42,694 nucleotides of DNA, from IMG/VR virus record IMGVR_UViG_2690316224_000012, positions 1-42,694 of that record; one strand, 5' to 3'. The DNA is from a virus (lineage: Duplodnaviria > Heunggongvirae > Uroviricota > Caudoviricetes). This document shows, in pieces, positions 1 through 42,694 of this stretch; the stretch's first letter is position 1, and each line of letters begins with the position of its first letter. The position numbers and the translations under genes are program-made. The notes under the pieces were generated by a model, which saw nothing but the letters and a program-made list of their open reading frames with translations, did not search any database and was not told where the DNA came from.

Positions 1-1248
1 ATGGCACTGAATATTCCATTCAGAAATGCGTACTATCGTTTTGCATCCAGTTACTCATTTCTCTTTTTTATTTCCTGGTCGCTGTGGTGGTCGTTATACG
101 CTATTTGGCTGAAAGGACATCTAGGGTTGACAGGGACGGAATTAGGTACACTTTATTCGGTCAACCAGTTTACCAGCATTCTATTTATGATGTTCTACGG
201 CATCGTTCAGGATAAACTCGGTCTGAAGAAACCGCTCATCTGGTGTATGAGTTTCATCCTGGTCTTGACCGGACCGTTTATGATTTACGTTTATGAACCG
301 TTACTGCAAAGCAATTTTTCTGTAGGTCTAATTCTGGGGGCGCTATTTTTTGGCTTGGGGTATCTGGCGGGATGCGGTTTGCTTGATAGCTTCACCGAAA
401 AAATGGCGCGAAATTTTCATTTCGAATATGGAACAGCGCGCGCCTGGGGATCTTTTGGCTATGCTATTGGCGCGTTCTTTGCCGGCATATTTTTTAGTAT
501 CAGTCCCCATATCAACTTCTGGTTGGTCTCGCTATTTGGCGCTGTATTTATGATGATCAACATGCGTTTTAAAGATAAGGATCACCAGTGCGTAGCGGCA
601 GATGCGGGAGGGGTAAAAAAAGAGGATTTTATCGCAGTTTTCAAGGATCGAAACTTCTGGGTTTTCGTCATATTTATTGTGGGGACGTGGTCTTTCTATA
701 ACATTTTTGATCAACAACTTTTTCCTGTCTTTTATGCAGGTTTATTCGAATCACACGATGTAGGAACGCGCCTGTATGGTTATCTCAACTCATTCCAGGT
801 GGTACTCGAAGCGCTGTGCATGGCGATTATTCCTTTCTTTGTGAATCGGGTAGGGCCAAAAAATGCATTACTTATCGGAGTTGTGATTATGGCGTTGCGT
901 ATCCTTTCCTGCGCGCTGTTCGTTAACCCCTGGATTATTTCATTAGTGAAGTTGTTACATGCCATTGAGGTTCCACTTTGTGTCATATCCGTCTTCAAAT
1001 ACAGCGTGGCAAACTTTGATAAGCGCTTGTCGTCGACGATCTTTCTGATTGGTTTTCAAATTGCCAGTTCGCTTGGGATTGTGCTGCTTTCAACGCCGAC
1101 TGGGATACTCTTTGACCACGCAGGCTACCAGACAGTTTTCTTCGCAATTTCGGGTATTGTCTGCCTGATGTTGCTATTTGGCATTTTCTTCTTGAGTAAA
1201 AAACGCGAGCAAATAGTTATGGAAACGCCTGTACCTTCAGCAATATAG
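1..1248 (+). CDS. cscB: Sucrose:H+ symporter (LacY/oligosaccharide-H+ symporter family MFS permease), CscB-like
   Basis: 415-aa polytopic membrane protein; N-terminus MALNIPFRNAYYRFASSYSFLFF recalled as CscB; position next to argW is consistent with the known csc locus location. Recalled, not searched. Confidence 0.8.
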   Translation: MALNIPFRNAYYRFASSYSFLFFISWSLWWSLYAIWLKGHLGLTGTELGTLYSVNQFTSILFMMFYGIVQDKLGLKKPLIWCMSFILVLTGPFMIYVYEPLLQSNFSVGLILGALFFGLGYLAGCGLLDSFTEKMARNFHFEYGTARAWGSFGYAIGAFFAGIFFSISPHINFWLVSLFGAVFMMINMRFKDKDHQCVAADAGGVKKEDFIAVFKDRNFWVFVIFIVGTWSFYNIFDQQLFPVFYAGLFESHDVGTRLYGYLNSFQVVLEALCMAIIPFFVNRVGPKNALLIGVVIMALRILSCALFVNPWIISLVKLLHAIEVPLCVISVFKYSVANFDKRLSSTIFLIGFQIASSLGIVLLSTPTGILFDHAGYQTVFFAISGIVCLMLLFGIFFLSKKREQIVMETPVPSAI

Positions 1249-10008: not shown

Positions 10009-10281
10009 TTACCTCGCCGTCAATTGTTTTGATTTCCGGTAGCCTGCCGCGTAAACGGCTACGTTTGGCAGGCAAATACTTCCACTGCATTCATCTGCCT
10101 TCTTGCAGCGAAGGCTTCCGAGTGAAGCTGCTTTGTCTGCTCTGACGCAACCAGAGAGCTTTAGCGCAATTTTTCGCGCCAGTCGCTGCTCTTGCATTGC
10201 CTGTTCACGTTGAGCCTGTCTGCGTGCTCTGCGGCGATTTCTGGCGTTATCGTCAGCCAGATATGTAATGACTACTGTCAT
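10009..10281 (-). CDS. N-like transcription antitermination protein (P22 gp24-like)
   Basis: Arg-rich N-terminal motif (NARNRRRARRQAQRE); C-terminus VAVYAAGYRKSKQLTAR resembles P22 gp24; first gene after pL/nutL; GGAGGT SD. Confidence 0.65.
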   Translation of the reverse strand: MTVVITYLADDNARNRRRARRQAQREQAMQEQRLARKIALKLSGCVRADKAASLGSLRCKKADECSGSICLPNVAVYAAGYRKSKQLTAR

Positions 10282-10307
10282 GTTGACCTCCGATGATTGA
10301 CTTTGGC

Positions 10308-10366
10308 GGTGACGCGCCGGGTGCTTATCTTCCGGTTGCCGTCGTGCAGCTGCACTTCACGTCACC
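10308..10366 (-). other. Structured element in the N-gene leader
   Basis: Inverted repeat GGTGACG (10308..10314) / CGTCACC (10360..10366) enclosing the 12-bp perfect palindrome GTGCAGCTGCAC (10344..10355). Confidence 0.3.
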
Positions 10367-10639
10367 CCAAAGCCAACTACTCTTTGACTCACACTCTCGC
10401 AGTGAGCGCGCTCATGCCCTTGAGTCTCTGTCGCTTATTAGCCGCTGATAACCGGTGCGCGTCTGGCATTCGCGCTGCCTTTCCGGAGCATGTTCCCTTA
10501 TTTACCCTCACATCGGTCTGCTAAACCTGCTCGCCATTACGCGACTCGGGGCAGCATCATTACTGCTGCATTGCCTTTCGGCTGCGGTCTAACCGCGTTA
10601 GTGCACCATTACGGCACCTCCTGTTTGGTTAAACTCAGT

Positions 10640-10680
10640 TCCCGCATTTCGGCGGGACAATCCCATCAATGTTAAAGAGC
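10640..10680 (-). promoter_or_regulatory. nutL (boxA-like GCTCTTTAA plus boxB hairpin)
   Basis: Minus-sense TCCCGCCGAAATGCGGGA (10640..10657) is identical to the hairpin after cro; boxA-like GGCTCTTTAA 14 nt upstream (10672..10680). Confidence 0.6.
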
Positions 10681-10728
10681 CTGCCAATCTGTTCCGTTTG
10701 GCTACCAGCGTCCTGCTGATGGCTAAAG

Positions 10729-10813
10729 AATACTGTAGGTATTTTATTGTGTAAATACCCAAGGTATTTATTTTTGGTGAAATAATGATAAGCAAATGAA
10801 TACAAAGGATATT
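10729..10813. promoter_or_regulatory. OL operators and leftward promoter pL
   Basis: Three sites AATAC-N5-GTATT at 10729..10743, 10754..10768 and 10799..10813 (third AATACAAAGGATATT); same half-sites as at OR; minus-strand -35 TTTACA / -10 TATTCT overlap two of them. Confidence 0.55.
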
Positions 10814-10899
10814 TATTTTTTCGGTGTCTGCTTGTTCAGTGCTTTTTATGCGGGATATGTGAAGTGGATCCCGATAGCTATTGCTGCCGGGATTATGGG

Positions 10900-11289
10900 T
10901 TAGTCAGCGAAGGTTAAGACGAGAATTACCTTAATGATGTCTGCTACAACAGACACGGCCATAGATAAACCAAAGACGATCCAAGCCATAGAGATGTCTT
11001 CACTACCATCGTATAGAGTTCCGTAATCACTGGTGTAAGGCGTAAATGTCGCGCCTTGATACAACAAGTATAAGCTTGATCCATAGAGGATAAATGCAGA
11101 TATCCCTTGTATTGCTATGATCACTAGAATCATGAAACGAGCTGATCTATGCGCCCAAGCCTGGCTTATTTTTTCTGATAGAGATTTCGCAATAAAAGCA
11201 TGCGCTAAGCCGTAAATTGTCGAGATTGCCAACATCCCAAAAAAGCTTGCTATAGCGGTTCCAACCATAATCGCCCCTTGCGTGATCAA
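10900..11289 (-). CDS. Small integral membrane protein in the lysogenic (cI) operon, rexAB-position
   Basis: 129 aa, about three predicted TM segments; start overlaps the cI stop by 4 bp, so it is co-transcribed with the repressor; lies between cI and OL exactly where lambda carries rexA/rexB. Confidence 0.6.
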   Translation of the reverse strand: MITQGAIMVGTAIASFFGMLAISTIYGLAHAFIAKSLSEKISQAWAHRSARFMILVIIAIQGISAFILYGSSLYLLYQGATFTPYTSDYGTLYDGSEDISMAWIVFGLSMAVSVVADIIKVILVLTFAD

Positions 11290-12002
11290 ACCAGCCTTAG
11301 TTTTGTCTCAATTGCAACGCCTATAATCTTGCAGTTTCCATTGATTGGCACGAGAGGCCATGCAGGATTAAGTCCCTTGAGGTATTTATTTCCGCCGTCG
11401 ATTATCAGCTTCTTGAATGTTGCTTCGTTAGAGTCAGAAAGTTTTGCTATGACCAAGCTGCCGTTGATCGCCTCCCTTCCGGTATCGAAAAGAACGAATG
11501 TTCCCTCTGGAATGCTTAACCCAACCGGTGCCGTCATTGAATCACCTTCCACTTTAAGCCAGAACGCATTACCTTGAATATGCGCGTCAGACTCAAGCCA
11601 AACATCTATGTCTTTAATGGTGTATGGTTCGCATGCTTCACACCACGAGCCAGCCTGGATACTGCTTAACACCGGATACCTCTTTCCTGCTCTGTATTCC
11701 CCTGCATACCTTACGTTGGCATCGCTCTTAAGGCTTTCTGCCTGTTCTGCAACCTTGGCAGCAATTGACTGGCTAAAATCAGCAATTGAGACTTGCAACA
11801 GCCGTGCAAAACCAGATGCAACCTCAACGTTTAGCGCGTTTCTGCCATTAAGATAATGCCCTACCGCTCCTTGGGTGATACCCAGTTCATCAGCGATTGA
11901 GTATTGGGTTATTCCCAATTCTTTCTTTTTTGACTCATACAAAGCCTTAAGCCGCTTAGCGTCTTCGAGCTGTTCTGTCGTCAGTGATTTTTTATTTTCC
12001 AT
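11286..12002 (-). CDS. cI: CI-type prophage repressor (HTH plus S24 LexA-like autopeptidase domain)
   Basis: 238 aa; N-terminal HTH (ITQYSIADELGITQGAVGHYLNG); Ala-Gly site (SIQAGSW); Ser/Lys dyad motifs GDSM and FKKL; divergent from cro across the operators. Confidence 0.9.
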   Translation of the reverse strand: MENKKSLTTEQLEDAKRLKALYESKKKELGITQYSIADELGITQGAVGHYLNGRNALNVEVASGFARLLQVSIADFSQSIAAKVAEQAESLKSDANVRYAGEYRAGKRYPVLSSIQAGSWCEACEPYTIKDIDVWLESDAHIQGNAFWLKVEGDSMTAPVGLSIPEGTFVLFDTGREAINGSLVIAKLSDSNEATFKKLIIDGGNKYLKGLNPAWPLVPINGNCKIIGVAIETKLRLV

Positions 12003-20337: not shown

Positions 20338-20412
20338 GGGTCAGTCGTATAAAGGTCATTACGGAAGGCTGTTAACCTTCTTATCGTGGTTCGAGTCCAC
20401 GCTGTCCCGCCA
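20338..20412 (+). tRNA. tRNA-Asn (anticodon GUU), phage-encoded
   Basis: Hand-folded cloverleaf: anticodon stem GAAGG/CCTTC with loop CUGUUAA, T-arm CGTGG-TTCGAGT-CCACG, 3' CCA; one acceptor-stem and one D-stem mismatch. Confidence 0.5.
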
Positions 20413-20417
20413 AATAT

Positions 20418-20493
20418 GCTGGTTTAGCTCCAATGGTAGAGCAGTCGCCTTGTAAGCGAATGGGTAGCGGTTCAAGTCCGTTAACCAGCACCA
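20418..20493 (+). tRNA. tRNA-Thr (anticodon UGU), phage-encoded
   Basis: Hand-folded cloverleaf: perfect 7-bp acceptor stem, D-arm GCTC/GAGC with GG loop, anticodon loop CUUGUAA, T-loop TTCAAGT, 3' ACCA. Confidence 0.6.
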
Positions 20494-33398: not shown

Positions 33399-34814
33399 AT
33401 GGCTACGTGGCAACAGGGTATTAATTCTGGTGGTTTTCTGGCTGGCATCGGTACGCAAAATGAGAATGCGCCAAAGGCAAGCGACATTAACGCAACGCTT
33501 GGTCTGATCCGCGAAAACAATGAACTGGCTCGCTCAGGTGCAAATAACGTTGGTCTGACCGCGTTACGTGGTCTGGCTGGAGTTGCTGATATTTACAATC
33601 AGGAACAGCAACAGAAAGCGATTAGTGCGTTCAATAAGGTTCACGCTGATGCATGGGCTTCTGGTGATCCATCGGGACTATTTAAGTTTGCCAAGGAAAA
33701 TCCAGCGTTTGTTGCGCAGGCACAACAGGCGTTTTCCGGTCTTAATGAGCAGCAACGCAACGATATGGGCGATTTAGCCATGAGGGCTAACGTCGCTCTT
33801 TCTCAGGGACCGGAAGCCTACAGTAAATTCATTACTGACAACAAGGACAGGTTAAATCGCGTTGGTGCTAATGCTGACTGGATGATTCAGACAGGTATCC
33901 AGAATCCAGAGCAGCTATCACACATGCTGACTACTATGTCTCTCGGTGCTCTTGGACCAGAAAAGGCGTTTGCTGTTCAGGATAAGATGGCTGGTCGTGA
34001 AATTGACCGAGGCAGGCTGGCAGAGACAATCCGCAGCAATCAGGCTGGCGAGGCACTTCAGGCGAGAGGGCAAAACCTTTCCTATCAGTCAGCAATGACT
34101 GGGCACAATATCGCAGCACAACGCTTGGCTCTGGATCAGCAAGAGTTCGGGTTTAAGATGCAGCAAGCGCAGGAAAAGGCTCAGCAGTTGATTAGCGAAG
34201 CACCTAAGCTGTCAGTAAATATGGAAAAAGGCATCGAGACGGCTGTAAACAATGCCACAGCATCATCAAACTCAGCCAATTCCATGAGTGCGCTTGCTCA
34301 ACAGTTCAGAGCAGAAAAACCAACGACAGGTTTGTTCGGTAACGCACAGAACATGTTCGCAAAACTTACCGGAAGCGATACGACATTGCGTGATTTGCGC
34401 ATTCGCCAAAATGCCCTTGTTAACAGTCAGGTTCTTAAATTCCTACCTCCCGGCCCAGCAACGGATAAAGACGTTGAGATCGTTCGGCAGGGTGCGCCAA
34501 CTGACATGGATAACCCTGAGACGGTCGCAAGATGGCTTGATGCAATGGCAAACCTTGAGCGACGAAACGCGCAGTTTAATGAGTTTAAAGCTGAGTGGAT
34601 GAGCGCGAATGGCAATCCTGGACAATCGCGTAATGGCGGTCAGATATTGGGGTTGGATGTTAAAAAAGGTGAATCATTGGGGAGTGCCGTTAAGCGGTAT
34701 ATGTCATTGAATACTGACGCAGCGCCAGCACAAGATTCGACACCTTCAGGAGAACCACGGAATCAGGTTGGATCATATACCTCAAAATCAGGCATTCAAT
34801 TTACGGTGGAATGA
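33399..34814 (+). CDS. Ejection protein, P22 gp20-like
   Basis: 471 aa, matching P22 gp20 length and position. Confidence 0.65.
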
Positions 34815-36652
34815 TGAAAGTAACTGCAAACGGTAAGACATTTATCTTTCCTGATGGTACGAGCACCGAAGATATTGGCATCGCCATTGATGAGTATTTT
34901 GCTGGTCAGGCTGTTCAGCAACAAACAGTTAATCAGGCCAATAATGCACCAACACGGGAAGAACCATCATTGATGCAACAAGCTGGCGATTGGCTCACTG
35001 GTGGTCAAAGTGCAGGGCAAATTGCAGAACAGGCTGGTCGTGGTCTGGTAAACATACCATTTGACGTATTGCAGGGTGGCGCAAGTCTGATTAATGCAAT
35101 CAGTCAGGGGATTGGTGGGCCAAAAGTTTTGGATGATGTTTATCGTCCAGTAGACAAACCGACAGACCCATACGCACAAGCCGGTGAAACAATTGGTGGG
35201 TATTTAGTTCCAGGAGTTGGAACGGCAGGAAGCATGGCTATTGGATCGCTGGCAGAGGCCGCAAATCAGAAAGGCGATTTCGCACAAAATGCAGCTAAAA
35301 ATGCCGGAGTTAACCTTGCCGCTCAGGGTGTTCTTTCCGCAGCAGCAAAGGGAATAGGGCGTGGAATAACGGCTATAAAAGGTGATATTGCGCCAGAAGT
35401 GGCGAAGAAAATTGCCACATCAGAATCGATGGGCGTGACACCAATGACATCTGATGTTATCCCGCCGAAAAATGCTTTCACTCGCGGCCTTACTCAGGAT
35501 GCCGAGGGGGCTTTGCTCGGGACGGGCTCAAAGCGAGCAGAGCAATATGCAACGCGGAGTAAGCTGGTAAGCAATTATTTTGACCGTTTTGGTGAGTACA
35601 ACCCTGATGATGTGGTGAAATCTCTGACCACCACGTTAAGGGGGCGGAAGGATGCCGCTGGCGCTGTTATCAATGACGTCACCAATAAAATGGGTAATGC
35701 CGCAGTTGATACCACAAATACCATGAATGCTCTGAATACAGCGATCGCAAGACAGGAACGGCTTGGGACGTCTGCCAATCAAAGCCTGCTTACATCCTTG
35801 CGTAACCTACGTGAAGAATTAGCAAACCCTGCAACTGATTTGGATGTTACGTTTGATCTCTTGCGTCAGCACAGAACAGCATTTAGATCTAATGTTCAGG
35901 GAGATGCTATGGTCTTCCCCAACCAGGCAAAAGCAGCTACCAATATGGTAGAGAATGCAATGTCAAAAGACCTTCGTAACGCAGTTGCTAAAAACCTCGG
36001 TGCATCAGACGCAGCAAAATACCTTAAAGCAAATTCCGATTATGCAAACGTTTATAATAAGGTGCTTAATAAAAACATTGCCAACAAGCTCAACAAGGCA
36101 AGCAGTGAAGCCAGTCCTGAACTTATAAATACCGTTGTATTAAGCAGAAAACCATCTGACGTGAAACGAATCTGGAGCGCACTGGATGATAAGGGGAAAG
36201 ATGCTATGCGTGCAGCTTACGTCAGCAAAATAGCGGAAAAGGCCGGGGACTCTCCAGCCAAGTTCATCACTGAAGTTAATAAGCTGAAATCTCAGTCAGG
36301 CGGTGAAATTTACAACACTATTTTTTCTGGAAAGCACATGAAAGAGCTTGATGCTCTTCATGAAGTTCTACAGCAAACAGCAAGGTCAGACACCGCAAAT
36401 GTAGTAACTCAGACGGGGCAATCGCAAGCCAACAGGATAAGGACGATTGGCGCAACTGCGACCCTTGGCGTATCAATGGGGCTTGAGGCTGGTTTTGGTG
36501 CAATGATGCGCTTGTATGAGTCCAAAGCAGCAAGGAATATGCTTCTTCGTTTGGCAAACACCAAAGCAGGAACACCAGCCTATGAAAGAGCGATAAATAA
36601 CGCTGCGAATGCCATCAGACCGCTGTTTGCTACTGAGGCAACACAGCAGTAA
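34811..36652 (+). CDS. Ejection protein, P22 gp16-like
   Basis: 613 aa (P22 gp16 about 609 aa), last of the three ejection genes. Confidence 0.65.
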
Positions 36653-36676
36653 CGTATGGGAAATTGGATTCAATCG

Positions 36677-37066
36677 CTAACATTTTCTTTTTACTTTTCC
36701 AACAAAAGCTTTGGTTGAATCCATATTTCCATAACCGGAAATGGTTTTTGACATTAAAACTGTTCCAGTAGGATGTATTACCCATGAGTCGATAACGCGT
36801 TGAGTTTCGCCATTCGCGCCGATTCCTATGATGGAGTTTTTAGACAATGCTTTGTAAGCCATGCCGCCCGCATCTGTCCCAGAATATGTGATGCTGGCAT
36901 CTTCACCGTTTGTCTTAATGATGAATGTTCCACTAAAACCATCTTCTTCCGGATGGAAATTATTTCGTTCTGAATAGCTTATTCCGCGCATATCTCCAAC
37001 GACCCAGCACTCTGCTGTAGCCCCAAAAGATATGAATAAGAACATAGCAGTAAGAAATTGCTTCAC
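36677..37066 (-). CDS. Secreted protein with signal peptide (moron)
   Basis: GTG start with AAGGAGG SD; N-terminal signal peptide (MKQFLTAMFLFISFGATA|E); convergent with the flanking structural genes. Confidence 0.6.
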   Translation of the reverse strand: MKQFLTAMFLFISFGATAECWVVGDMRGISYSERNNFHPEEDGFSGTFIIKTNGEDASITYSGTDAGGMAYKALSKNSIIGIGANGETQRVIDSWVIHPTGTVLMSKTISGYGNMDSTKAFVGKVKRKC

Positions 37067-37184
37067 GCCAACCTCCTTAGTTTTGAGCAGGATACCATGA
37101 AAAAAGTAAACATCTTTTGCCTACTTCACATTTGAATGGTTTGTCATTAGGATGTTTCCGGTTTTTTCAAATATGGAAATTGAT

Positions 37185-37604
37185 ATGAAGAGGATTATCG
37201 GCGTTGTTGCTGGCGCTATATTGTTATCTGGGTGCGCAACTATTGTTGGTGACGAAACACAGCTCGTGCAAGTGAACAGCAATCCTTCCGGTGCGAGCTT
37301 TAAAGTAAAAGACGAATCAGGCGTGATTGTTGCGCAAGGCAAGACCCCGCAAGGAGTAACTCTTGCCAAGTCAGATGGTAGTTATTTTGGCAAAAAGAGC
37401 TACCAGATCACTATGGAAAAGGATGGGTACGAACCAGTTACCCTGCCAATCAAAGCCAATGCTAATGGTTGGTATATTGGTGGAAACCTTGTGTTTGGTG
37501 GGTTAATTGGTTGGCTTGCTGTAGATCCTTTTAATGGTGGGATGTATACCTTGAAGCCAAAAGAGGCAAACGCATCTCTTATACCATCAACAAAGCAAGA
37601 CTAA
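37185..37604 (+). CDS. Lipoprotein (moron)
   Basis: Signal peptide with lipobox AILLSGC; mature part has PEGA-like beta-rich sequence and a Gly-rich hydrophobic C-terminal segment. Confidence 0.6.
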   Translation: MKRIIGVVAGAILLSGCATIVGDETQLVQVNSNPSGASFKVKDESGVIVAQGKTPQGVTLAKSDGSYFGKKSYQITMEKDGYEPVTLPIKANANGWYIGGNLVFGGLIGWLAVDPFNGGMYTLKPKEANASLIPSTKQD

Positions 37605-37615
37605 TAAATAGGACC

Positions 37616-37635
37616 AACCGTCAGGTGGTTTTTTT
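37616..37635 (+). terminator. Weak intrinsic terminator after the lipoprotein gene
   Basis: AACCGT-CAG-GTGGTT hairpin (with G-U pairs) followed by T5. Confidence 0.4.
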
Positions 37636-37687
37636 GTACAAATCCTTCAGCCAGTACATAACTACTGACACTTAACCAACGCAACGA

Positions 37688-37710
37688 CCCAGCTTCGGCT
37701 GGGTTTTTTT
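37688..37710 (+). terminator. Strong intrinsic terminator
   Basis: CCCAGC-TTCG-GCTGGG followed by T7. Confidence 0.75.
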
Positions 37711-37759
37711 ATGCCCAAAATTCACCGTAGCTACTCAGCGGCTATGGCCTTGAGAGATA

Positions 37760-37782
37760 GCACTACACAAAAAGTGTAGTGC
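37760..37782. promoter_or_regulatory. Perfect inverted repeat GCACTACAC-AAAAA-GTGTAGTGC upstream of the tailspike gene
   Basis: 9-bp arms with a 5-bp spacer, flanked by 10-bp direct repeats TCACCGTAGC (37722..37731 and 37800..37809). Confidence 0.35.
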
Positions 37783-37846
37783 AAAAAGCGAACAAATACT
37801 CACCGTAGCCATGCTGCGGCGATTCCTTGTATCTGGAGCAAATTAA

Positions 37847-40084
37847 ATGACAGACATTACAGCCAATGTGATCGTATCGATGCCTTCGCAACTCTTCACT
37901 ATGGCTCGTTCTTTTAAAGCCGTAGCCAATGGCAAAATTTATATCGGTAAAATTGACACTGACCCGGTAAATACTGAAAACCAGATTCAGGTTTATGTAG
38001 AGAACGAAGATGGTTCTCACGTTCCTGTTTCGCAACCAATCATCATTAACGCTGCTGGATATCCGGTATATAACGGACAGATTGCCAAATTCGTAACCGT
38101 GCAAGGCCATTCTATGGCTGTTTATGATGCGTATGGTGCGCAGCAGTTCTATTTTTCGAATGTGCTGAAGTATGACCCTGACCAACTCAGGCAAGATCTT
38201 GCATCTCAAGGAGGTGTTAATCTGGTAAACGGAGCTATCTCACAGGAAGATCTTGTTTTGCAGTCGATCACAAAAATTCCAAGTTATGATAATTCTAACG
38301 TAGTCCAGGCGTGGCGCGATAGTGTTGCGACCTACGGGTATGTTTACTTCTCTAATCATTCAAAAAATCAGATGGTGTACACCGTACCGTCTACAGCTGC
38401 TAACGCTTCTTTCCTTGCGAACAGTAAAGTAATCATTGATAAAAATGTCACCCTGAGATTCGACAGTGATCTGTACTCACTGTTTAAATCGTTGCAGTAC
38501 GAGGGGGAGGGTACGTTTGAATTTACGCACCTGAACTTTAAAGCAACCGGTGGAGAAGTGGATTATCTGGCTAAGCAGGCCATCCTCAACCGAAACCCTA
38601 TTCGCATGAAGCGAGTGGAATGGTCAGATTGTAAAGTTTATTCCATAAATGGTGACACGTTCTTCTATGAAGGTGAAGTCACCATATCCTCAGATAGCGC
38701 AGCTATCTTCCCCTTAACTACTGACCGTACAACAGGCCTGTTCGCACCAATAGATATTGGAGAGCATATTTCTGCACATATTCGTATGGAGTCTCAGGCC
38801 GCCTCAGAAGTTGGGATTGTTCTGCGATGCTCTGGTGGTTGGATGATGTTCTATGGGGCACCAGGTGCTACACAGTGGTCTTATAGACAGAAACCAATTG
38901 GTGGTCCAGTAGCAGAAGGAACTCCATTCCCGCTGCCAGGAGGTTTACTGTCGTACGCCCCGGGCAAAGCAACCGTTGGCGTATCACTGCAAGGTAAAAA
39001 CTGGGCGCAGATAACGATGAATGGCGTTGGGATACGTTTGCCCTTTGATACTGCTGATGTAGGGGATGTATACGAAGTTGGGTTTGTTGCACTGACCACG
39101 GCATCTGGAGGTTCTGCGCGTGTAACTGGATTATGCAGCTACACCTCTGATAATGGCGTGCACGGTAAGCCTCCACTTAATATCCTTATCCACGGTGATA
39201 GTACAGCTGAGGATTTCATTTCCGCGTTCAGCTCGTACATTCCGCAATTAATGGATGGAGCGAACGGCCACCGTTCATATAGCATTGTAAACAAGGCGGT
39301 TGCCGGACAGACAATGAGGCAACAGTTAGATCTCCTGAAGGCTCAGGGGCCGGGTGATGCTTACATCGTTATTATGGTTGCCGGAACTAACGAAGGGCAG
39401 GCAAACCAAAACGGCGATTATATGGCGTCATTGATAGATGAGTTTGTCTTATATTGCAATGGCCTTGGTCGTATCCCTGTTTGGGTTGAGCCGTGGATGT
39501 GGTATAGCCAGTCATTTATTGGAGGGGCTGGCCAGCCATCTTCTAACTACGACGGTGTCGCAGAGTTGCGAGAAGCTGGTAAACGCCAGATGATGAAATA
39601 TGGCAATAACGTCATTTGTGTAACAACAACTCACCAGCTCCCGGCCCCATATCCAGAGTATTTCAACACGCAATACGACCCACTTCTGCGTGATGACATT
39701 CACCAAAGCCAGTTAGGGTATCGTCTGTATGCGGAAATTATCTGCTCTGCCATTATCGACTGGTGGTCGCGTGTTGATTACACGCCAAGAGCAGCTGTTC
39801 AATGGTGGGCTGGAACAAACGTAACAGTACAGGCACCGTCAAGTTTAACTGCCAATTCAATTAATATTGAACTGGCAGCCACTTCATTTGCGAATGGCAA
39901 TACTGTTCTAACGCTTCCGAGGTGGTGCAGACCAAAAGTAACCAAAAATGTCCCTGTACCGTTCACTGCTGATGGCGTTTCATTTGGCATGGCAATGGCC
40001 ACCATTAATGCTTCAACAGGACAAATATCGATTGAAGGGTCCACCACTACATCTCCAACGTTCTACATAGATGCGACATGGTAG
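37847..40084 (+). CDS. Tailspike: P22-type head-binding N-terminal domain fused to a receptor domain with SGNH-hydrolase (esterase) motifs
   Basis: N-terminus [11 protein letters not shown]...[12 protein letters not shown]...DTDPVN...VTVQGHSMA matches P22 gp9 residues 1-110; C-terminal part has GDS ([14 protein letters not shown]), GxNE (VAGTNEG) and DxxH ([11 protein letters not shown]) blocks. Confidence 0.8.
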
Positions 40085-40292: not shown

Positions 40293-41450
40293 TCACTCCA
40301 CCTTCCCATCAAGCCATTCCGCCCACCACTGCATCATTTCTCTGCGCTTATCTAGATACTGAGCATGGTTGTAAATCCCGCGCACAGATCCGCCGTTGGC
40401 ATGTGCAAGTTGCACTTCAATAGCGTCAGCAGGCCATTCGTGCTCGTTCATAATCGTGCTGAATTCATGCCTGAATCCGTGACCGCTTTCCAGACCCTCA
40501 TAGCCGATTTGTTTAATCACAAGTAGCACCGCGTTCTCGCAGATTGGCTTCTTCTTATCGTTGCGTCCGGCAAAAACAAACTCTGATACTGGTTTGGTGA
40601 TTGAGCTTAGCGTAGTGAGAAGTTCAACCACCTGGTCTGACATAGGAACCACATGAATTTTGCGTCCCTTCATCACACTGGCGTCGATAGTGATAATCCT
40701 GTTTTCAAAATCGACGTTCTTCCATTGCATGGAACGAAGCTCTTTCGTTCTTAGGGCTGTGTAGCGTAAAACTTTGGTCGCAATGAGCGATACGATGCTT
40801 CCTGAAAATGTTGCCAGTGCTTTGTTGAATGCCGGGATCTGGTCTGCAGGAAGAAACGGGAAGTTCTTCTTGCGGTATCCTTTCATGGCGTCTGCAAGGT
40901 CAGGTGCCGGGTTATATTTAGCCCTACCAGTGACAATAGCGTAACGGAAAACCTCGCCGCATCTTCTGCGTGCTTTGTTGGCTCGCTCCATTGCGCCGCG
41001 ATCTTCAAATCTGCGGATTACTTCCAGCAGTTGCATCGGCTCAATATCCTGAATTTCAAGGCCGCCGATGATAGGTAAAATGTCGTCATCAAACATTTTT
41101 GCAAGTTCAGTTGCATAGCCTACTGACCAGACTTGCTTCTTGTGCTCGTACCATTCCTTGTAAATCGCACTAAAGGAATTGTTGTTAGACGAAGCCTTTT
41201 TCGCTTTTACCGGATCGATGCCAACCGAGATGTCTTTCCTCGCAGTCCATGCTTTATCCCTTGCCTCCTGCAAAGTCATTAGCGGATATTTTCCTACGGT
41301 CAGGATTTTCTCCTTACCGTCAATCTTGTAGCGAAGCTGCCATACCTTTTTCCCTGACACAGGGACATAAAGGTACAGGCCATTACCATCGAGTAGGCGG
41401 TATGGTTTTTCTTTCGGCTTTGCTGCTTCAATCTGCTTAACGGTGAGCAT
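40293..41450 (-). CDS. intS: Tyrosine integrase, IntS (KplE1/CPS-53) type
   Basis: Track ORF begins with GTG at 41486; ATG at 41450 gives 385 aa starting MLTVKQIEAAKPKEKPYRL..., as recalled for E. coli IntS; adjacent to argW. Confidence 0.85.
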   Translation of the reverse strand: MLTVKQIEAAKPKEKPYRLLDGNGLYLYVPVSGKKVWQLRYKIDGKEKILTVGKYPLMTLQEARDKAWTARKDISVGIDPVKAKKASSNNNSFSAIYKEWYEHKKQVWSVGYATELAKMFDDDILPIIGGLEIQDIEPMQLLEVIRRFEDRGAMERANKARRRCGEVFRYAIVTGRAKYNPAPDLADAMKGYRKKNFPFLPADQIPAFNKALATFSGSIVSLIATKVLRYTALRTKELRSMQWKNVDFENRIITIDASVMKGRKIHVVPMSDQVVELLTTLSSITKPVSEFVFAGRNDKKKPICENAVLLVIKQIGYEGLESGHGFRHEFSTIMNEHEWPADAIEVQLAHANGGSVRGIYNHAQYLDKRREMMQWWAEWLDGKVE

Positions 41451-41611
41451 GGGTAAAAATCCGGTGGGTAAAATTATTTTATCCACTTTTTACCCGTCAT
41501 GGAGTGCGGCTGTCAACGATCTGACGCGAACCATTACGAACTGTGAATCTACGGAAGGCTTGATATTCAGGGGATTTTGCGGACTGGTACGGATGGGAGC
41601 GAACTGATAAA

Positions 41612-41626
41612 TGGTGTCCCCTGCAG
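41612..41626. repeat. attR core (argW 3' end), TGGTGTCCCCTGCAG
   Basis: Identical 15-mer to 1690..1704. Confidence 0.7.
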
Positions 41627-41686
41627 GAATCGAACCTGCAATTAGCCCTTAGGAGGGGCTCGTTATATCCATTTAACTAAGAGGAC
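41612..41686 (-). tRNA. argW: tRNA-Arg (anticodon CCU), argW
   Basis: Reverse complement GTCCTCTTAGTTAAATGGATATAACGAGCCCCTCCTAAGGGCTAATTGCAGGTTCGATTCCTGCAGGGGACACCA folds as a cloverleaf with a CCU anticodon. Confidence 0.9.
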
Positions 41687-41761: not shown

Positions 41762-42694
41762 TTATGCTGGGTTTTTATCATTTTTCTTAATGTTTTCCGC
41801 ACGTTCTGCTTTTTGGCGTGCTTCTGCTTTACGCTTGTTGCTCATGTCGTTACGAATCTGTGCATGACTCATTAACGCGAAGATAAAGGTGCCGCCGCAG
41901 ATGTTCCCCGCTAAAGTAGGTAGTGCGAAGGGCCAGATGAAATCGCTCCAGTGCAGCGTGCCGTTAAACACCAGATAGAGGATTTCAACAGAACCGACAA
42001 CGATGTGGGTGGTGTCACCCAGTGCAATAAGCCAGGTCATCAATATAATCACCACAATCTTTGCCGCACCCGCAGCAGGAAACATCCAAACCATAGTGGC
42101 GATCAGCCAGCCGGAAATGATCGCGTTGGCAAACATCTCGCTGGGGGTGTTCTTCATCACATCCATGCCGATTTTGACAAATGCATCGCGAGTTTCTTCA
42201 TTGAAGATAGGCATATATTCAAATGCCCATGCAGCAATACCTGTCCCGAGAATATTACCCAGCAGCACGACGCCCCATAATCGCATAAGTAAGCCGACGT
42301 TGCTCATTGTCGGTTTTTGCATGACGGGTAGTACCGCAGTCACGGTGTTTTCGGTAAATAATTGCTGGCGGGCCATAATGACGATAATAAAACCAAAGGT
42401 ATAACCGAGATTCTCCAGTAAGAAGCTGCCTGGCACTCCTTCCAGTTCGACATGAAATATCCCTTTTGCCAGTAGCGAAGCGCCCATCGACAGACCCGCC
42501 GCAATGGCTGACCACAGTAGCGCCATTGCGTCGCGTTCCAGCTCTTTTTCACCATCCTGGCGGATATGCTCATGAATTGCCATCGCCCGGGAGGGGAGTC
42601 GGTCTTCATCTATTTCTATTTTTTTGCCGCGCTCTTTTTCTTCGCTCTCAACTTCAATTTCGTCGCTGTGTTGATCAATTTTGTCGTTGTCCAT
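41762..42694 (-). CDS. yfdC: Formate/nitrite transporter-family inner membrane protein YfdC-like
   Basis: 310 aa, acidic N-terminus then about six TM segments; position next to argW matches E. coli yfdC. Confidence 0.75.
   Translation of the reverse strand: MDNDKIDQHSDEIEVESEEKERGKKIEIDEDRLPSRAMAIHEHIRQDGEKELERDAMALLWSAIAAGLSMGASLLAKGIFHVELEGVPGSFLLENLGYTFGFIIVIMARQQLFTENTVTAVLPVMQKPTMSNVGLLMRLWGVVLLGNILGTGIAAWAFEYMPIFNEETRDAFVKIGMDVMKNTPSEMFANAIISGWLIATMVWMFPAAGAAKIVVIILMTWLIALGDTTHIVVGSVEILYLVFNGTLHWSDFIWPFALPTLAGNICGGTFIFALMSHAQIRNDMSNKRKAEARQKAERAENIKKNDKNPA

Follow-up and report, generated by a model that had tools for sequence, protein, structure and literature searches.

What do two small genes lying between the ejection-protein genes and the tailspike gene of a P22-like prophage encode, when are they expressed, and what could they do for the lysogen? 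The DNA analysed here, a stretch of 42,694 nucleotides (the window), is a prophage of the P22-like type that has integrated at argW, as shown by tRNA-Arg(CCT) at 41612-41686, an adjoining integrase gene, host flanks and ejection genes of the gp7/gp20/gp16 type. The interval with the two genes corresponds to the left-hand portion of a hypervariable region known from the literature, the 'ant moron' (sieA/immI region), which lies between gene 16 and the gene 9 homologue of P22-like phages and was described as variable and in rapid flux (PMC2629481). The features of the interval and its borders are as follows.

34811..36652, plus strand: gp16-type DNA-ejection (DNA transfer) protein gene (PHROG 770 'DNA transfer protein', E 6e-277)
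36653..36676: tail-to-tail spacer of 24 nt between the ejection gene and ORF-A
36677..37066, minus strand: ORF-A, 129 aa, predicted to be Sec-exported, GTG start at 37064-37066
37013-37066, minus strand: part of ORF-A coding for the predicted signal peptide
36680-37012, minus strand: part of ORF-A coding for the predicted mature protein of 111 aa
37067..37113, minus strand: sieA-type leader and promoter region of ORF-A, ATGTTTACTTTTTTCATGGTATCCTGCTCAAAACTAAGGAGGTTGGC, including the Shine-Dalgarno (SD) sequence at 37072-37078
37125..37153, plus strand: predicted sigma-70 promoter of ORF-B (TTCACA, 17 nt, TAGGAT)
37185..37604, plus strand: ORF-B, lipoprotein of 139 aa, lipobox LSGC at residues 14-17
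37610..37635, plus strand: weak intrinsic terminator, bulged hairpin and U7 (-8.4 kcal/mol, z -1.4)
37686..37712, plus strand: strong intrinsic terminator upstream of the tailspike gene (-14.5 kcal/mol, z -3.2)
37847..40084, plus strand: tailspike gene with the P22 head-binding N-terminal domain (Pfam Head_binding, E 6e-66)

Organisation of the locus

A first-pass annotation of this DNA had described two genes here, together with an SD sequence, a signal peptide, a lipobox and two terminators, and our analysis recovered all of these elements and showed that both genes are real open reading frames. It had also called the pair convergent, which was wrong, as the start codons of ORF-A and ORF-B face each other across 37067-37184 (118 bp) and the genes are divergent, head to head. 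The true convergence is between ORF-A and the gp16-like ejection gene, which meet tail to tail with a gap of 24 nt that was kept in 28/29 ORF-A loci; a terminator hairpin was looked for in this spacer and none was found. The ejection gene, whose homologues are named 'P22-gp16 family phage DNA ejection protein' by PGAP, is the final gene of the late-operon block ahead of the moron region.

The base composition of the interval was unlike that of its flanks, with a GC content of 0.408 in ORF-A, 0.347 in the intergenic region and 0.448 in ORF-B, compared with 0.47 in the gp16 gene, 0.464 in the tailspike gene and 0.475 in the whole window. The shift of ORF-B from its flanks is modest. Both genes are under purifying selection, with pN/pS of 0.20 for mature ORF-A and 0.044 for ORF-B. 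The immI genes (mnt, arc, sar, ant) are absent altogether from the window, and among 27 ORF-A loci this architecture was found only once, in the window itself.

ORF-A occupies the sieA slot of P22

In P22, gene 16 is followed after 22 nt by sieA, which is encoded on the other strand and has an annotated promoter, PsieA. As judged from sequence comparison, ORF-A sits exactly in this slot and retains the sieA leader: the two genes share the strand and the position 22-24 nt past the gp16 stop, and leader, SD and GTG are near-identical. Over the leader at 37067..37113, 44/47 nt are the same as the sequence ahead of P22 sieA, and the SD of ORF-A (AAGGAGG, the complement of 37072-37078) stands 5 nt upstream of the GTG. 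The first-pass comparison with P22, whose gap holds immI and sieA where the window has other content, was thus upheld, and it is the sieA slot itself that ORF-A fills. The sieA-type leader was also kept in epsilon34 and, from TGGTATCC on, in Emek. In epsilon34 it precedes gene 14 (hkcB-like), whereas the leftward gene of the window is ORF-A instead; epsilon34 genes 14 and 15 belong to the described 'ant moron' (Villafane et al. 2008, PMC2629481).

The likeness to the sieA locus does not extend to the protein. P22 SieA is a multi-pass inner-membrane protein of 164 aa with four hydrophobic 19-mers and the cytoplasmic motif FxRYPxEAxxFNK of the SieA family (P22 types A-C; PMC10883804), whereas ORF-A has no such motif and only one hydrophobic 19-mer, that of its signal peptide, followed by A-x-A. 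The proteins have no sequence similarity and were placed in separate classes by BLASTP clustering. ORF-A would thus work from the place of sieA without being a member of the SieA family.

The 34-nt core of the leader was present in at least 119 IMG/VR contigs, where it was followed by 12 unrelated ORF classes, among them ORF-A (30), hkcB-like proteins (25) and P22 SieA (8). ORF-A was the commonest leader-driven class in this sample. Eleven of the 12 classes carry a transmembrane segment or a signal peptide; ORF-A is the sole soluble beta-barrel, and two smaller classes have signal-peptide-like N-termini. A single gp16 C-terminal type was found with five payload classes, which indicates that the payload is exchanged as a cassette. 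We use 'sieA-slot payload' as an operational class for a frame that starts at the GTG of the leader TGGTATCCTGNNCAAAACTAAGGAGGTTGGNGTG and ends beside the gp16 stop on the opposite strand, and ORF-A has both properties. When loci were collected by protein similarity, ORF-A abutted gp16 on the opposite strand in 76/80 IMG/VR loci. A PhoP box was also looked for by eye in 37067-37184; only a single TGTTTA half-site was seen, on the minus strand 12 nt upstream of a -10-like hexamer (TATCCT), which was unconvincing and is not claimed.

ORF-A is predicted to be a small exported beta-barrel

The first-pass reading of the opposite-strand gene as one with an AAGGAGG SD and a signal peptide was borne out. 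The N-terminus of ORF-A (MKQFLTAMFLFISFGATA, with the predicted cleavage before EC) shows the parts of a signal peptide, a hydrophobic core after a basic n-region and then an A-x-A site for cleavage. The AF2 model showed an 8-9-stranded beta-barrel with a pLDDT of 94.2, so that the predicted fold can be called confidently as a generic beta-barrel without a characterised relative. Cys20 and Cys129 are conserved and probably form a disulfide that closes the barrel. In a Foldseek search against BFVD viral structures, ORF-A matched uncharacterised proteins only, with TM of at most 0.52, and in the fold comparison PhiA was placed 31st, behind many unrelated barrels. The likeness to T4 Spackle and to the lysozyme inhibitors PliC, MliC and PhiA is at fold level only: ORF-A gave no Pfam MliC match at E<=1 and no profile match to any PDB sequence.

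Searches of Pfam, NCBIfam, PHROGs and PADLOC gave no functional name for ORF-A or ORF-B. Apart from the PEGA and Cor matches described below, the only matches were PHROG 2651 and 6823 (both 'unknown') and the uncharacterised NCBIfam LEPBI_I2678, far below threshold at 22.9 bits against a cut-off of 240; PADLOC-DB gave no match for either protein at E<=1, and single-sequence and family-profile searches of PDB gave nothing meaningful for either. Similarity to virion structural proteins, named in the first-pass annotation as a result that would speak against its reading, was found for neither ORF-A nor ORF-B.

By tblastn at E<=1e-5 in 50,697 phage genomes, ORF-A was found only in Emek and ST-35, and the Emek annotation 'similar to Sf6 gene 38' was not reproduced for ORF-A in this search. 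The gene is present in 147/5,426 complete E. coli genomes, O111 strains among them. Three large multidomain proteins matching ORF-A (P0181, P0190, P0211) contain Big_1, Calx-beta and Big_3_5 repeats and were treated as beta-strand-rich noise. P0012, the representative of the biggest ORF-A cluster, has another C-terminus; it is not a separate variant and is instead a copy cut short where a prophage remnant ends, next to dsdX/dsdA.

ORF-B encodes a predicted lipoprotein and has its own transcription signals

ORF-B likely starts at ATG 37185 rather than at 37152, because every homologue, like the epsilon34 and Gally annotations, opens with MK(K/R), and a start at 37152 would overlap the predicted -10 box. 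The first-pass description of a lipobox lipoprotein with a Gly-rich hydrophobic segment proved correct. Cys17 of the LSGC lipobox is encoded at 37233-37235 and was invariant in 41 homologues, 5 of which matched LPAM_1. Lipoprotein sorting follows the established +2 rule, and the Ala at this position predicts sorting of ORF-B to the outer membrane. Residues 25-93 were modelled as a transthyretin/PEGA-like beta-sandwich (pLDDT >90), with a match to PEGA (Pfam PF08308) below threshold; residues 95-113 form a Gly-rich hydrophobic loop, followed by a conserved VDPFNGGMY motif.

Small phage lipoproteins made by the lysogen or the infected cell, such as Cor of phi80, N15 and HK022 and Llp of T5, act on the outer membrane. 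The mature domain of ORF-B is unrelated to theirs, and the matches were confined to the signal peptide (residues 1-20 or 1-30) and below cut-offs (PHROG 1119, residues 1-20, E 0.0034; NCBIfam Cor, 11.7 bits against a cut-off of 31). ORF-B also differs from Cor and Llp in occurring in phages with different receptors. HK97 gp15, studied by Cumby et al. in 2012 (cited in PMC10883804), is reportedly a small envelope moron product that the prophage expresses and that prevents DNA entry. Its gene lies between the tail-chaperone and tape-measure genes, the slot in which the siphovirus homologues of ORF-B are found. HK97 gp15 is, however, an inner-membrane protein unrelated in sequence to ORF-B, which is a lipoprotein with a beta-sandwich.

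ORF-B is 100% identical to gene 14 of Gally and 97.8% identical to gene 15 of epsilon34. Homologues with 68-81% identity directly precede the tape-measure gene in siphovirus prophages of several lineages, and two Enterobacter genomes carry ORF-B by itself in the chromosome, at a conserved locus that is not of phage type. In Gally both hexamers of the predicted promoter are kept (TTCACG, 17 nt, TAAGAT) although the spacer has diverged. The two terminators that the first-pass annotation placed after ORF-B were both found, one strong and one weak. The strong one (hairpin 37686-37705 and a T-run) matches the terminator region of HK620 and CUS-3. The window and epsilon34 match at 94% over 37064-37651, a segment that includes the weak terminator; in epsilon34 a terminator is annotated at the same place, following the lipoprotein gene (gene 15). 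The weak hairpin was missed by our terminator scan.

Published RNA-seq data on the Gally lysogen show that gene 14 is transcribed in cells whose late operon is at background (PMC9928086). Its log2(fpkm+5) was 9.4-11.0 in four conditions, compared with 3.6-4.2 for the adjacent ejection gene (PMC9928086, S1/S4 tables), and its transcript increased in macrophages at 6 h relative to LB (log2FC 3.84, q 1.4e-31; PMC9928086).

ORF-A and ORF-B as probable lysogen-expressed envelope morons

The reading of ORF-A and ORF-B as lysogen-expressed envelope morons, proposed in the first-pass annotation, is well supported: each gene is present or absent independently among close relatives, ORF-A lies on the opposite strand, and the Gally copy of ORF-B is transcribed in the lysogen. 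Of 50,697 phage genomes, 4 and 3 records have the two genes, and P22, HK620 and CUS-3 are without them. At one and the same position, closely related phages differ in having or lacking these genes, which interrupt an operon that is otherwise syntenic. An own promoter, a terminator and independent prophage transcription were found together for ORF-B only. Being on the opposite strand, ORF-A is out of reach of the late promoter, and this orientation and the conserved sieA leader suggest that it would be transcribed independently.

Proposed roles of ORF-A and ORF-B

The reading that we favour, with a rough probability of 0.5, is that ORF-A and ORF-B are two unrelated accessory genes with their own promoters, whose products are envelope proteins made by the lysogen, ORF-A serving exclusion and ORF-B envelope modification. 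The position of the genes and the predicted cell location of their products are consistent with superinfection exclusion or lysogenic conversion. The ORF-A payload takes the exact place of the sieA frame, beginning at the GTG codon and stopping some 24 nt short of the gene 16 end, and its product would be exported by Sec, cut after Ala18 and folded as a small periplasmic beta-barrel. There it may act on the envelope-crossing step of incoming P22-like phages, perhaps by binding the needle, one of the ejection proteins or an activity that cuts peptidoglycan. Exclusion is our best guess for ORF-A and its most likely role, as suggested by position only; SieA is made from the prophage and stops DNA delivery by P22-like phages via the ejection proteins gp16/gp20, and sieA with 85 bp upstream is enough for at least 1e7-fold exclusion of P22 (PMC10883804). 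ORF-B would be a separate mobile moron encoding an outer-membrane lipoprotein with its Gly-rich loop facing the periplasm. Its own predicted sigma-70 promoter would drive its transcription, which would end at the two terminators, and late transcripts would have to pass both of these to reach the tailspike gene. Its role could be modification of the lysogen envelope (exclusion or receptor masking) or fitness under stress. The immI module (mnt-arc-ant), usually the next segment, has been lost in the window.

A bolder version of this reading, which we regard as doubtful, is that ORF-A founds a new exclusion type, a soluble periplasmic beta-barrel, and that the sieA leader marks a plug-in slot at which P22-like prophages swap at least 12 mechanistically different exclusion proteins that act on the envelope. 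ORF-A would then bind the trans-envelope conduit (gp7, gp20, gp16, needle or peptidoglycan hydrolase) and halt the DNA between the membranes.

To our knowledge, P22 SieA is the only occupant of the slot that has been studied. Its mechanism was clarified only in 2024 (Leavitt et al. 2024, PMC10883804). Should one leader indeed serve a dozen small envelope proteins with no kinship to each other, the slot would offer a ready list of candidate exclusion factors, which would fit the established sieA assay of a single copy with its native upstream region. As a soluble beta-barrel, ORF-A would probe how the ejection-protein conduit crosses the periplasm, which SieA does not. ORF-B represents a widespread uncharacterised lipoprotein family of Enterobacterales that was captured repeatedly by temperate phages of two morphotypes, beside DNA-delivery genes. 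Its Gally copy is strongly on in cell-culture medium and inside macrophages in an adherent-invasive E. coli strain (PMC9928086), and ORF-B is therefore worth considering as the source of a conversion or exclusion phenotype, which would have escaped the 5-fold LB cut-off of the original authors. Should both genes prove to lack a phenotype, they would simply be two further hypothetical genes in a known variable region.

Alternative explanations

One or both genes could instead be host-fitness or lysogenic-conversion factors not concerned with exclusion, for example in envelope stress, in serum or macrophage tolerance (as lambda Bor) or in immunity to competitors' toxins that act in the periplasm (bacteriocins, T6SS or CDI effectors); we consider this possible but rather unlikely. 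Inhibitor and immunity proteins are commonly small periplasmic beta proteins with disulfide bonds, which favours such a role. Distant relatives of ORF-A were found in integron-cassette-like arrays, the Vibrio one beside a T6SS Tdi1-type immunity gene, although adjacency in integron arrays is functionally meaningless. ORF-A itself is confined to the sieA slot of P22-like phages (76/80 loci), beside the genes whose products SieA targets, which argues against such a role. For ORF-B, the stand-alone Enterobacter copies are consistent with host fitness, as is the expression of its Gally copy, about 100-fold over its neighbour in the B1/B6 and macrophage samples and near background in LB overnight, but deletion of the whole Gally prophage left the macrophage survival of LF82 unchanged (PMC9928086).

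It is very improbable that ORF-A and ORF-B form a functional pair, for instance a periplasmic partner docked on an outer-membrane anchor. They are neighbours with a common intergenic control region, the products of both end in the periplasmic space, and at least 41/5,426 complete E. coli genomes carry them together. In the leader-based sample, ORF-B was commoner beside ORF-A (12/27) than beside the other payload classes (about 13/74). The treatment of the two genes as a pair did not survive the wider count, however: ORF-B stood beside ORF-A in only 20/55 ORF-A loci with enough flank, and in 74 P22-like contigs with ORF-B the leftward gene was ORF-A (19), a Gally-13 type (17), hkcB-like (12), class 3 (11) or another (15). 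In all, ORF-B was seen beside five leftward genes other than ORF-A. No phage in the 50,697-genome collection has both, and ORF-B occurs alone in siphoviruses and chromosomes. A functional pair is already largely refuted by this distribution.

A function in the late operon, as a virion component or as an accessory to assembly, ejection or lysis, would fit the embedding of the genes between the ejection-protein and tailspike genes and the orientation of ORF-B, which lytic read-through transcripts should include, but is highly unlikely given that ORF-A is antisense to the late operon, structural-protein similarity is lacking, most P22-like phages are fully viable without both genes, the region plays no part in morphogenesis or lysis according to published analysis (PMC2629481), and Gally gene 14 is on while the late genes are silent.

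Two divergent genes in the ant moron region

The window represents a P22-like prophage of Lederbergvirus type, with gp7/gp20/gp16-type ejection genes before the interval studied here and a tailspike with a P22 head-binding domain after it. The gene 16-gene 9 stretch of P22-like phages has been described as the "ant moron", variable, in rapid flux and not involved in morphogenesis or lysis; epsilon34 genes 14 and 15 within it were left as unknown (PMC2629481). The features of the interval are as follows.

37066 down to 36677, minus strand: ORF-A, 129 aa, GTG start
37185 (ATG), plus strand: ORF-B, 139 aa, beginning MKRIIGVVAGAILLSGC
37610-37635, after ORF-B: weak terminator, -8.4 kcal/mol, z -1.4
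37686-37705 plus T-run, after ORF-B: strong terminator, -14.5 kcal/mol, z -3.2

The first-pass annotation described the genes as a convergent pair, but they are divergent and read outwards from start codons on either side of 37067-37184. ORF-A converges instead with the gp16-type gene, across a 24-nt gap in which no hairpin was found. The strong AAGGAGG SD claimed for the opposite-strand gene lies 5 nt upstream of the ORF-A GTG, and its signal peptide was also recovered, as the N-terminus (MKQFLTAMFLFISFGATA, followed by EC) has a Sec signal-peptide layout with an A-x-A cleavage site. The mechanical ORF of ORF-B opens on the plus strand at 37152; the ATG at 37185 is the likely true start, because all homologues and the epsilon34 and Gally annotations begin there and a predicted -10 box overlaps 37152. 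The predicted ORF-B promoter (TTCACA, 17 nt, TAGGAT; 37125-37153) has a counterpart in phage Gally (TTCACG, 17 nt, TAAGAT) whose spacer has diverged, a small phylogenetic footprint. ORF-B is the lipobox lipoprotein first reported, with a canonical LSGC, Cys17 and Ala at +2. Under the established Lol sorting rule this Ala predicts the outer membrane as the destination of the lipoprotein. Both terminators reported after ORF-B are present, one of them weak; the weak one falls within a 94% match to epsilon34, where the terminator after epsilon34 gene 15 is annotated. Across IMG/VR alleles mature ORF-A had a pN/pS of 0.20 and ORF-B one of 0.044. ORF-A and ORF-B are real genes.

ORF-A is one of many payloads behind the sieA leader

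P22 sieA, with its annotated promoter PsieA, is found 22 nt past gene 16 in the opposite orientation. Of the 47 nt that lead up to the ORF-A GTG (ATGTTTACTTTTTTCATGGTATCCTGCTCAAAACTAAGGAGGTTGGC), 44 were the same as in the stretch ahead of the sieA GTG, and the likeness ended exactly at the start codon. The same leader is found in Emek and, before an hkcB-like gene, in epsilon34. Scanning IMG/VR with the 34-nt leader core gave at least 119 contigs, and the ORFs starting at the leader GTG fell into 12 mutually unrelated classes among the matches listed. ORF-A shares slot and leader with P22 SieA but belongs to a separate, unrelated payload class.

Table. Payload classes behind the sieA-type leader (among the matches listed)
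Payload; length; loci
ORF-A; 129 aa; 30
hkcB-like, transmembrane plus coiled coil; 107-109 aa; 25
Second transmembrane/coiled-coil type; 109 aa; 15
Two-transmembrane protein; 75 aa; 9
Two-transmembrane protein; 62 aa; 9
P22-type SieA; 164 aa; 8
Six rarer classes; various; 2-6 each

Among these matches, 11 of the 12 classes had a hydrophobic transmembrane segment or a signal peptide, and a single gp16 C-terminal sequence type was paired with five classes, indicating that the payload is swapped as a cassette between the gene 16 end and the leader. In an independent sample collected by protein similarity, ORF-A adjoined gp16 on the opposite strand in 76/80 loci, with a tailspike nearby in 75/80. 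At leader-driven IMG/VR loci ORF-A carried one of two signal peptides, MKQFLTAMFLFISFGATA or MKLIIAMAFLVFSFSVSA, before an almost invariant mature protein; pN/pS was 2.2 over codons 1-18 and 0.20 over the remainder, and an MKRW(F/V)(L/I) start was common to three other payload classes. These results suggested that recombination joints may also lie inside the signal-peptide coding region (window 37013..37066).

As first noted, the content differs from that of the P22 gap; the analysis placed ORF-A in the position of sieA and showed the immI genes to be missing. The immI genes (mnt, arc, sar, ant) usual between the lipoprotein gene and the tailspike are absent from window 37605..37846, and the two terminators that usually bracket them are now 50 nt apart, an architecture that, among 27 ORF-A loci with enough flank, was seen in the window alone. 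It has been reported that sieA with 85 bp of upstream DNA suffices for at least 1e7-fold exclusion of P22, and that sieA is present in only 22 of 66 sequenced P22-like phages (PMC10883804). Since the sieA leader is kept, ORF-A would inherit expression signals known to work from a prophage.

Sequence relatives and predicted fold of ORF-A

Salmonella phages Emek and ST-35 each have a hypothetical gene that matches ORF-A at 96-97% identity, and ORF-A occurs in 147 of 5,426 complete E. coli genomes. Among 5.8 billion proteins searched, close homologues (22 clusters) were restricted to E. coli and Salmonella prophages. An exhaustive HMMER search extended the family by 89 remoter representatives (125-135 aa), each with a signal peptide, a Cys just past the cleavage site and a C-terminal Cys. 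Family-wide conservation was limited to C20, G28, W95, G111, G123 and C129, which argues for a scaffold and against an enzyme. The AlphaFold2 model is all-beta with nine strands (pLDDT 94.2); its first strand and its last each carry one of the two cysteines, which makes a disulfide closing the barrel likely.

Distant members (25-32% identity; L012-L015, L219-L221) sat in one-directional small-gene arrays with spacers of roughly 110-380 nt, an arrangement in Vibrio and metagenomes that looks typical of integron cassettes; the Vibrio parahaemolyticus relative neighbours a T6SS Tdi1-type immunity gene. A Microbulbifer member belongs to a prophage-like island. P0012 (L222 4001..4405), which represents the largest ORF-A cluster, diverges after residue ~112. 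It stands directly beside host dsdX/dsdA-like genes, on the border of a prophage remnant that consists of the tailspike, mnt, two small ORFs and the truncated ORF-A, and in which the moron end is the part surviving decay.

ORF-B moves independently of ORF-A

ORF-B matches epsilon34 gene 15 at 97.8% identity and Gally gene 14 at 100%. This allele was found in 124 of 5,426 complete E. coli genomes, and the family exceeds 728 clusters in Enterobacterales and beyond. In the predicted model, residues 25-93 form a transthyretin/PEGA/CnaB-type sandwich (pLDDT above 90; Pfam PEGA score just under threshold), on which the invariant VDPFNGGMY motif packs back. The Gly-rich hydrophobic C-terminal segment seen at first pass corresponds to residues 95-113, modelled with low confidence.

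ORF-A and ORF-B stand side by side in at least 41 of the 5,426 E. coli genomes, and one reading is that they work as a functional pair. Their distribution speaks against joint working and largely excludes this: the two were found together in none of 50,697 phage genomes, and on 74 P22-like contigs the leftward neighbour of ORF-B was ORF-A in 19, a Gally-13-type lipoprotein in 17, an hkcB-like gene in 12, class 3 in 11 and others in 15. ORF-B moves independently of ORF-A. Copies 68-81% identical were located directly upstream of the tape-measure gene, behind the tail chaperone genes, in siphovirus prophages of E. coli, Proteus and others, the position that the HK97 gp15 exclusion moron also takes. 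Two Enterobacter genomes (L223, L224 6001..6390) have a homologue about 80% identical on the chromosome, standing alone among metabolic genes: an aldehyde dehydrogenase/ABC transporter cluster lies on one side, tehB-like and ghoT-like genes on the other, and neither locus has phage genes nearby.

The E. coli siphovirus prophages with an ORF-B homologue ahead of the tape-measure gene (L003, L005, L006, L007) also contain a porin gene (Porin_1/Porin_4; about 10261..11424) between tail genes M and L, a second envelope moron of the tail operon.

The Gally copy of ORF-B is expressed from its prophage

Published RNA-seq of the Gally prophage in LF82 (S1 and S4 tables, PMC9928086) allowed Gally gene 14, identical to ORF-B, to be compared with the adjacent ejection-protein gene 12.

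Table. Expression of Gally genes, log2(fpkm+5) (PMC9928086)
Sample; gene 14; gene 12
LB overnight; 6.2 / 4.8; 3.9 / 3.6
B1; 9.8 / 10.2; 3.7 / 3.7
B6; 10.5 / 10.2; 3.6 / 3.6
Macrophages 1 h; 11.0 / 11.0; 4.0 / 4.0
Macrophages 6 h; 9.4 / 9.5; 4.2 / 4.1

B1 and B6 probably stand for bacteria kept in cell-culture medium with no macrophages present. The gap between the genes was roughly 100-fold in the four non-LB samples, and gene 14 rose in macrophages at 6 h versus LB (log2FC 3.84, q 1.4e-31; PMC9928086). The five rightmost prophage genes went up 6- to 40-fold in macrophages, and the packaging and injection genes did not (PMC9928086). The study listed Gally as moron-less because gene 14 in LB was 3.3-fold over background, below its 5-fold cut-off (PMC9928086). 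Lysogen expression, which the first-pass annotation named as a check, is supported on the ORF-B side through the identical Gally gene.

Gally gene 13 (L018 4381..4896), which occupies the leftward slot without the sieA leader, holds a lipobox (MKKSLLIIPLLLAGC) and reads as another envelope lipoprotein; it was also induced in the macrophage RNA-seq, log2(fpkm+5) going from about 6 to 10.3.

Probable roles of the two genes

We consider it well supported (about 0.85) that ORF-A and ORF-B are two independent envelope-targeted, non-virion accessory genes, ORF-B being expressed from a prophage and ORF-A very probably so, because it uses the signals of sieA. ORF-A might be a superinfection exclusion factor acting in the periplasm, a tentative assignment at somewhat under even odds, favoured because ORF-A resides exclusively in the sieA slot, nearly all alternative payloads are envelope-targeted, and it is linked to the ejection genes that SieA targets. 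If ORF-A is indeed a soluble periplasmic exclusion factor, the finding would carry more weight. For ORF-B, exclusion or receptor masking and host fitness are both candidate roles: its chromosomal copy, spread over phage morphotypes and medium- and macrophage-responsive expression lean towards fitness, and its recurrent insertion beside DNA-delivery genes towards exclusion.

The region and both genes are already in databases as "hypothetical", and the region's variability is published. We found stated nowhere else that ORF-A corresponds exactly to the sieA slot, that one conserved leader serves at least 12 exchangeable payloads, or that independent ORF-B expression is already in published RNA-seq.

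Other features of the prophage

1..1248: LacY-family permease, host flank
41612-41686: tRNA-Arg(CCT) beside the integrase, read as argW
41762..42694: FNT-family transporter, host flank

Directly after the tailspike, without an intervening gtr or oac O-antigen conversion module, comes the integrase, which abuts tRNA-Arg(CCT) (window 40293..41686). Phage-borne tRNA-Asn(GTT) and tRNA-Thr(TGT) lie at window 20338..20493, upstream of the lysis and late region. Behind its N-terminal P22 head-binding domain, the tailspike (37847..40084) gave a sub-threshold GDSL/SGNH hydrolase match at residues 450-627 (19.5 bits, cut-off 32.9), its best PHROG being 17606 ("unknown function"); the protein is perhaps a tailspike of esterase (deacetylase) type, not a glycanase.
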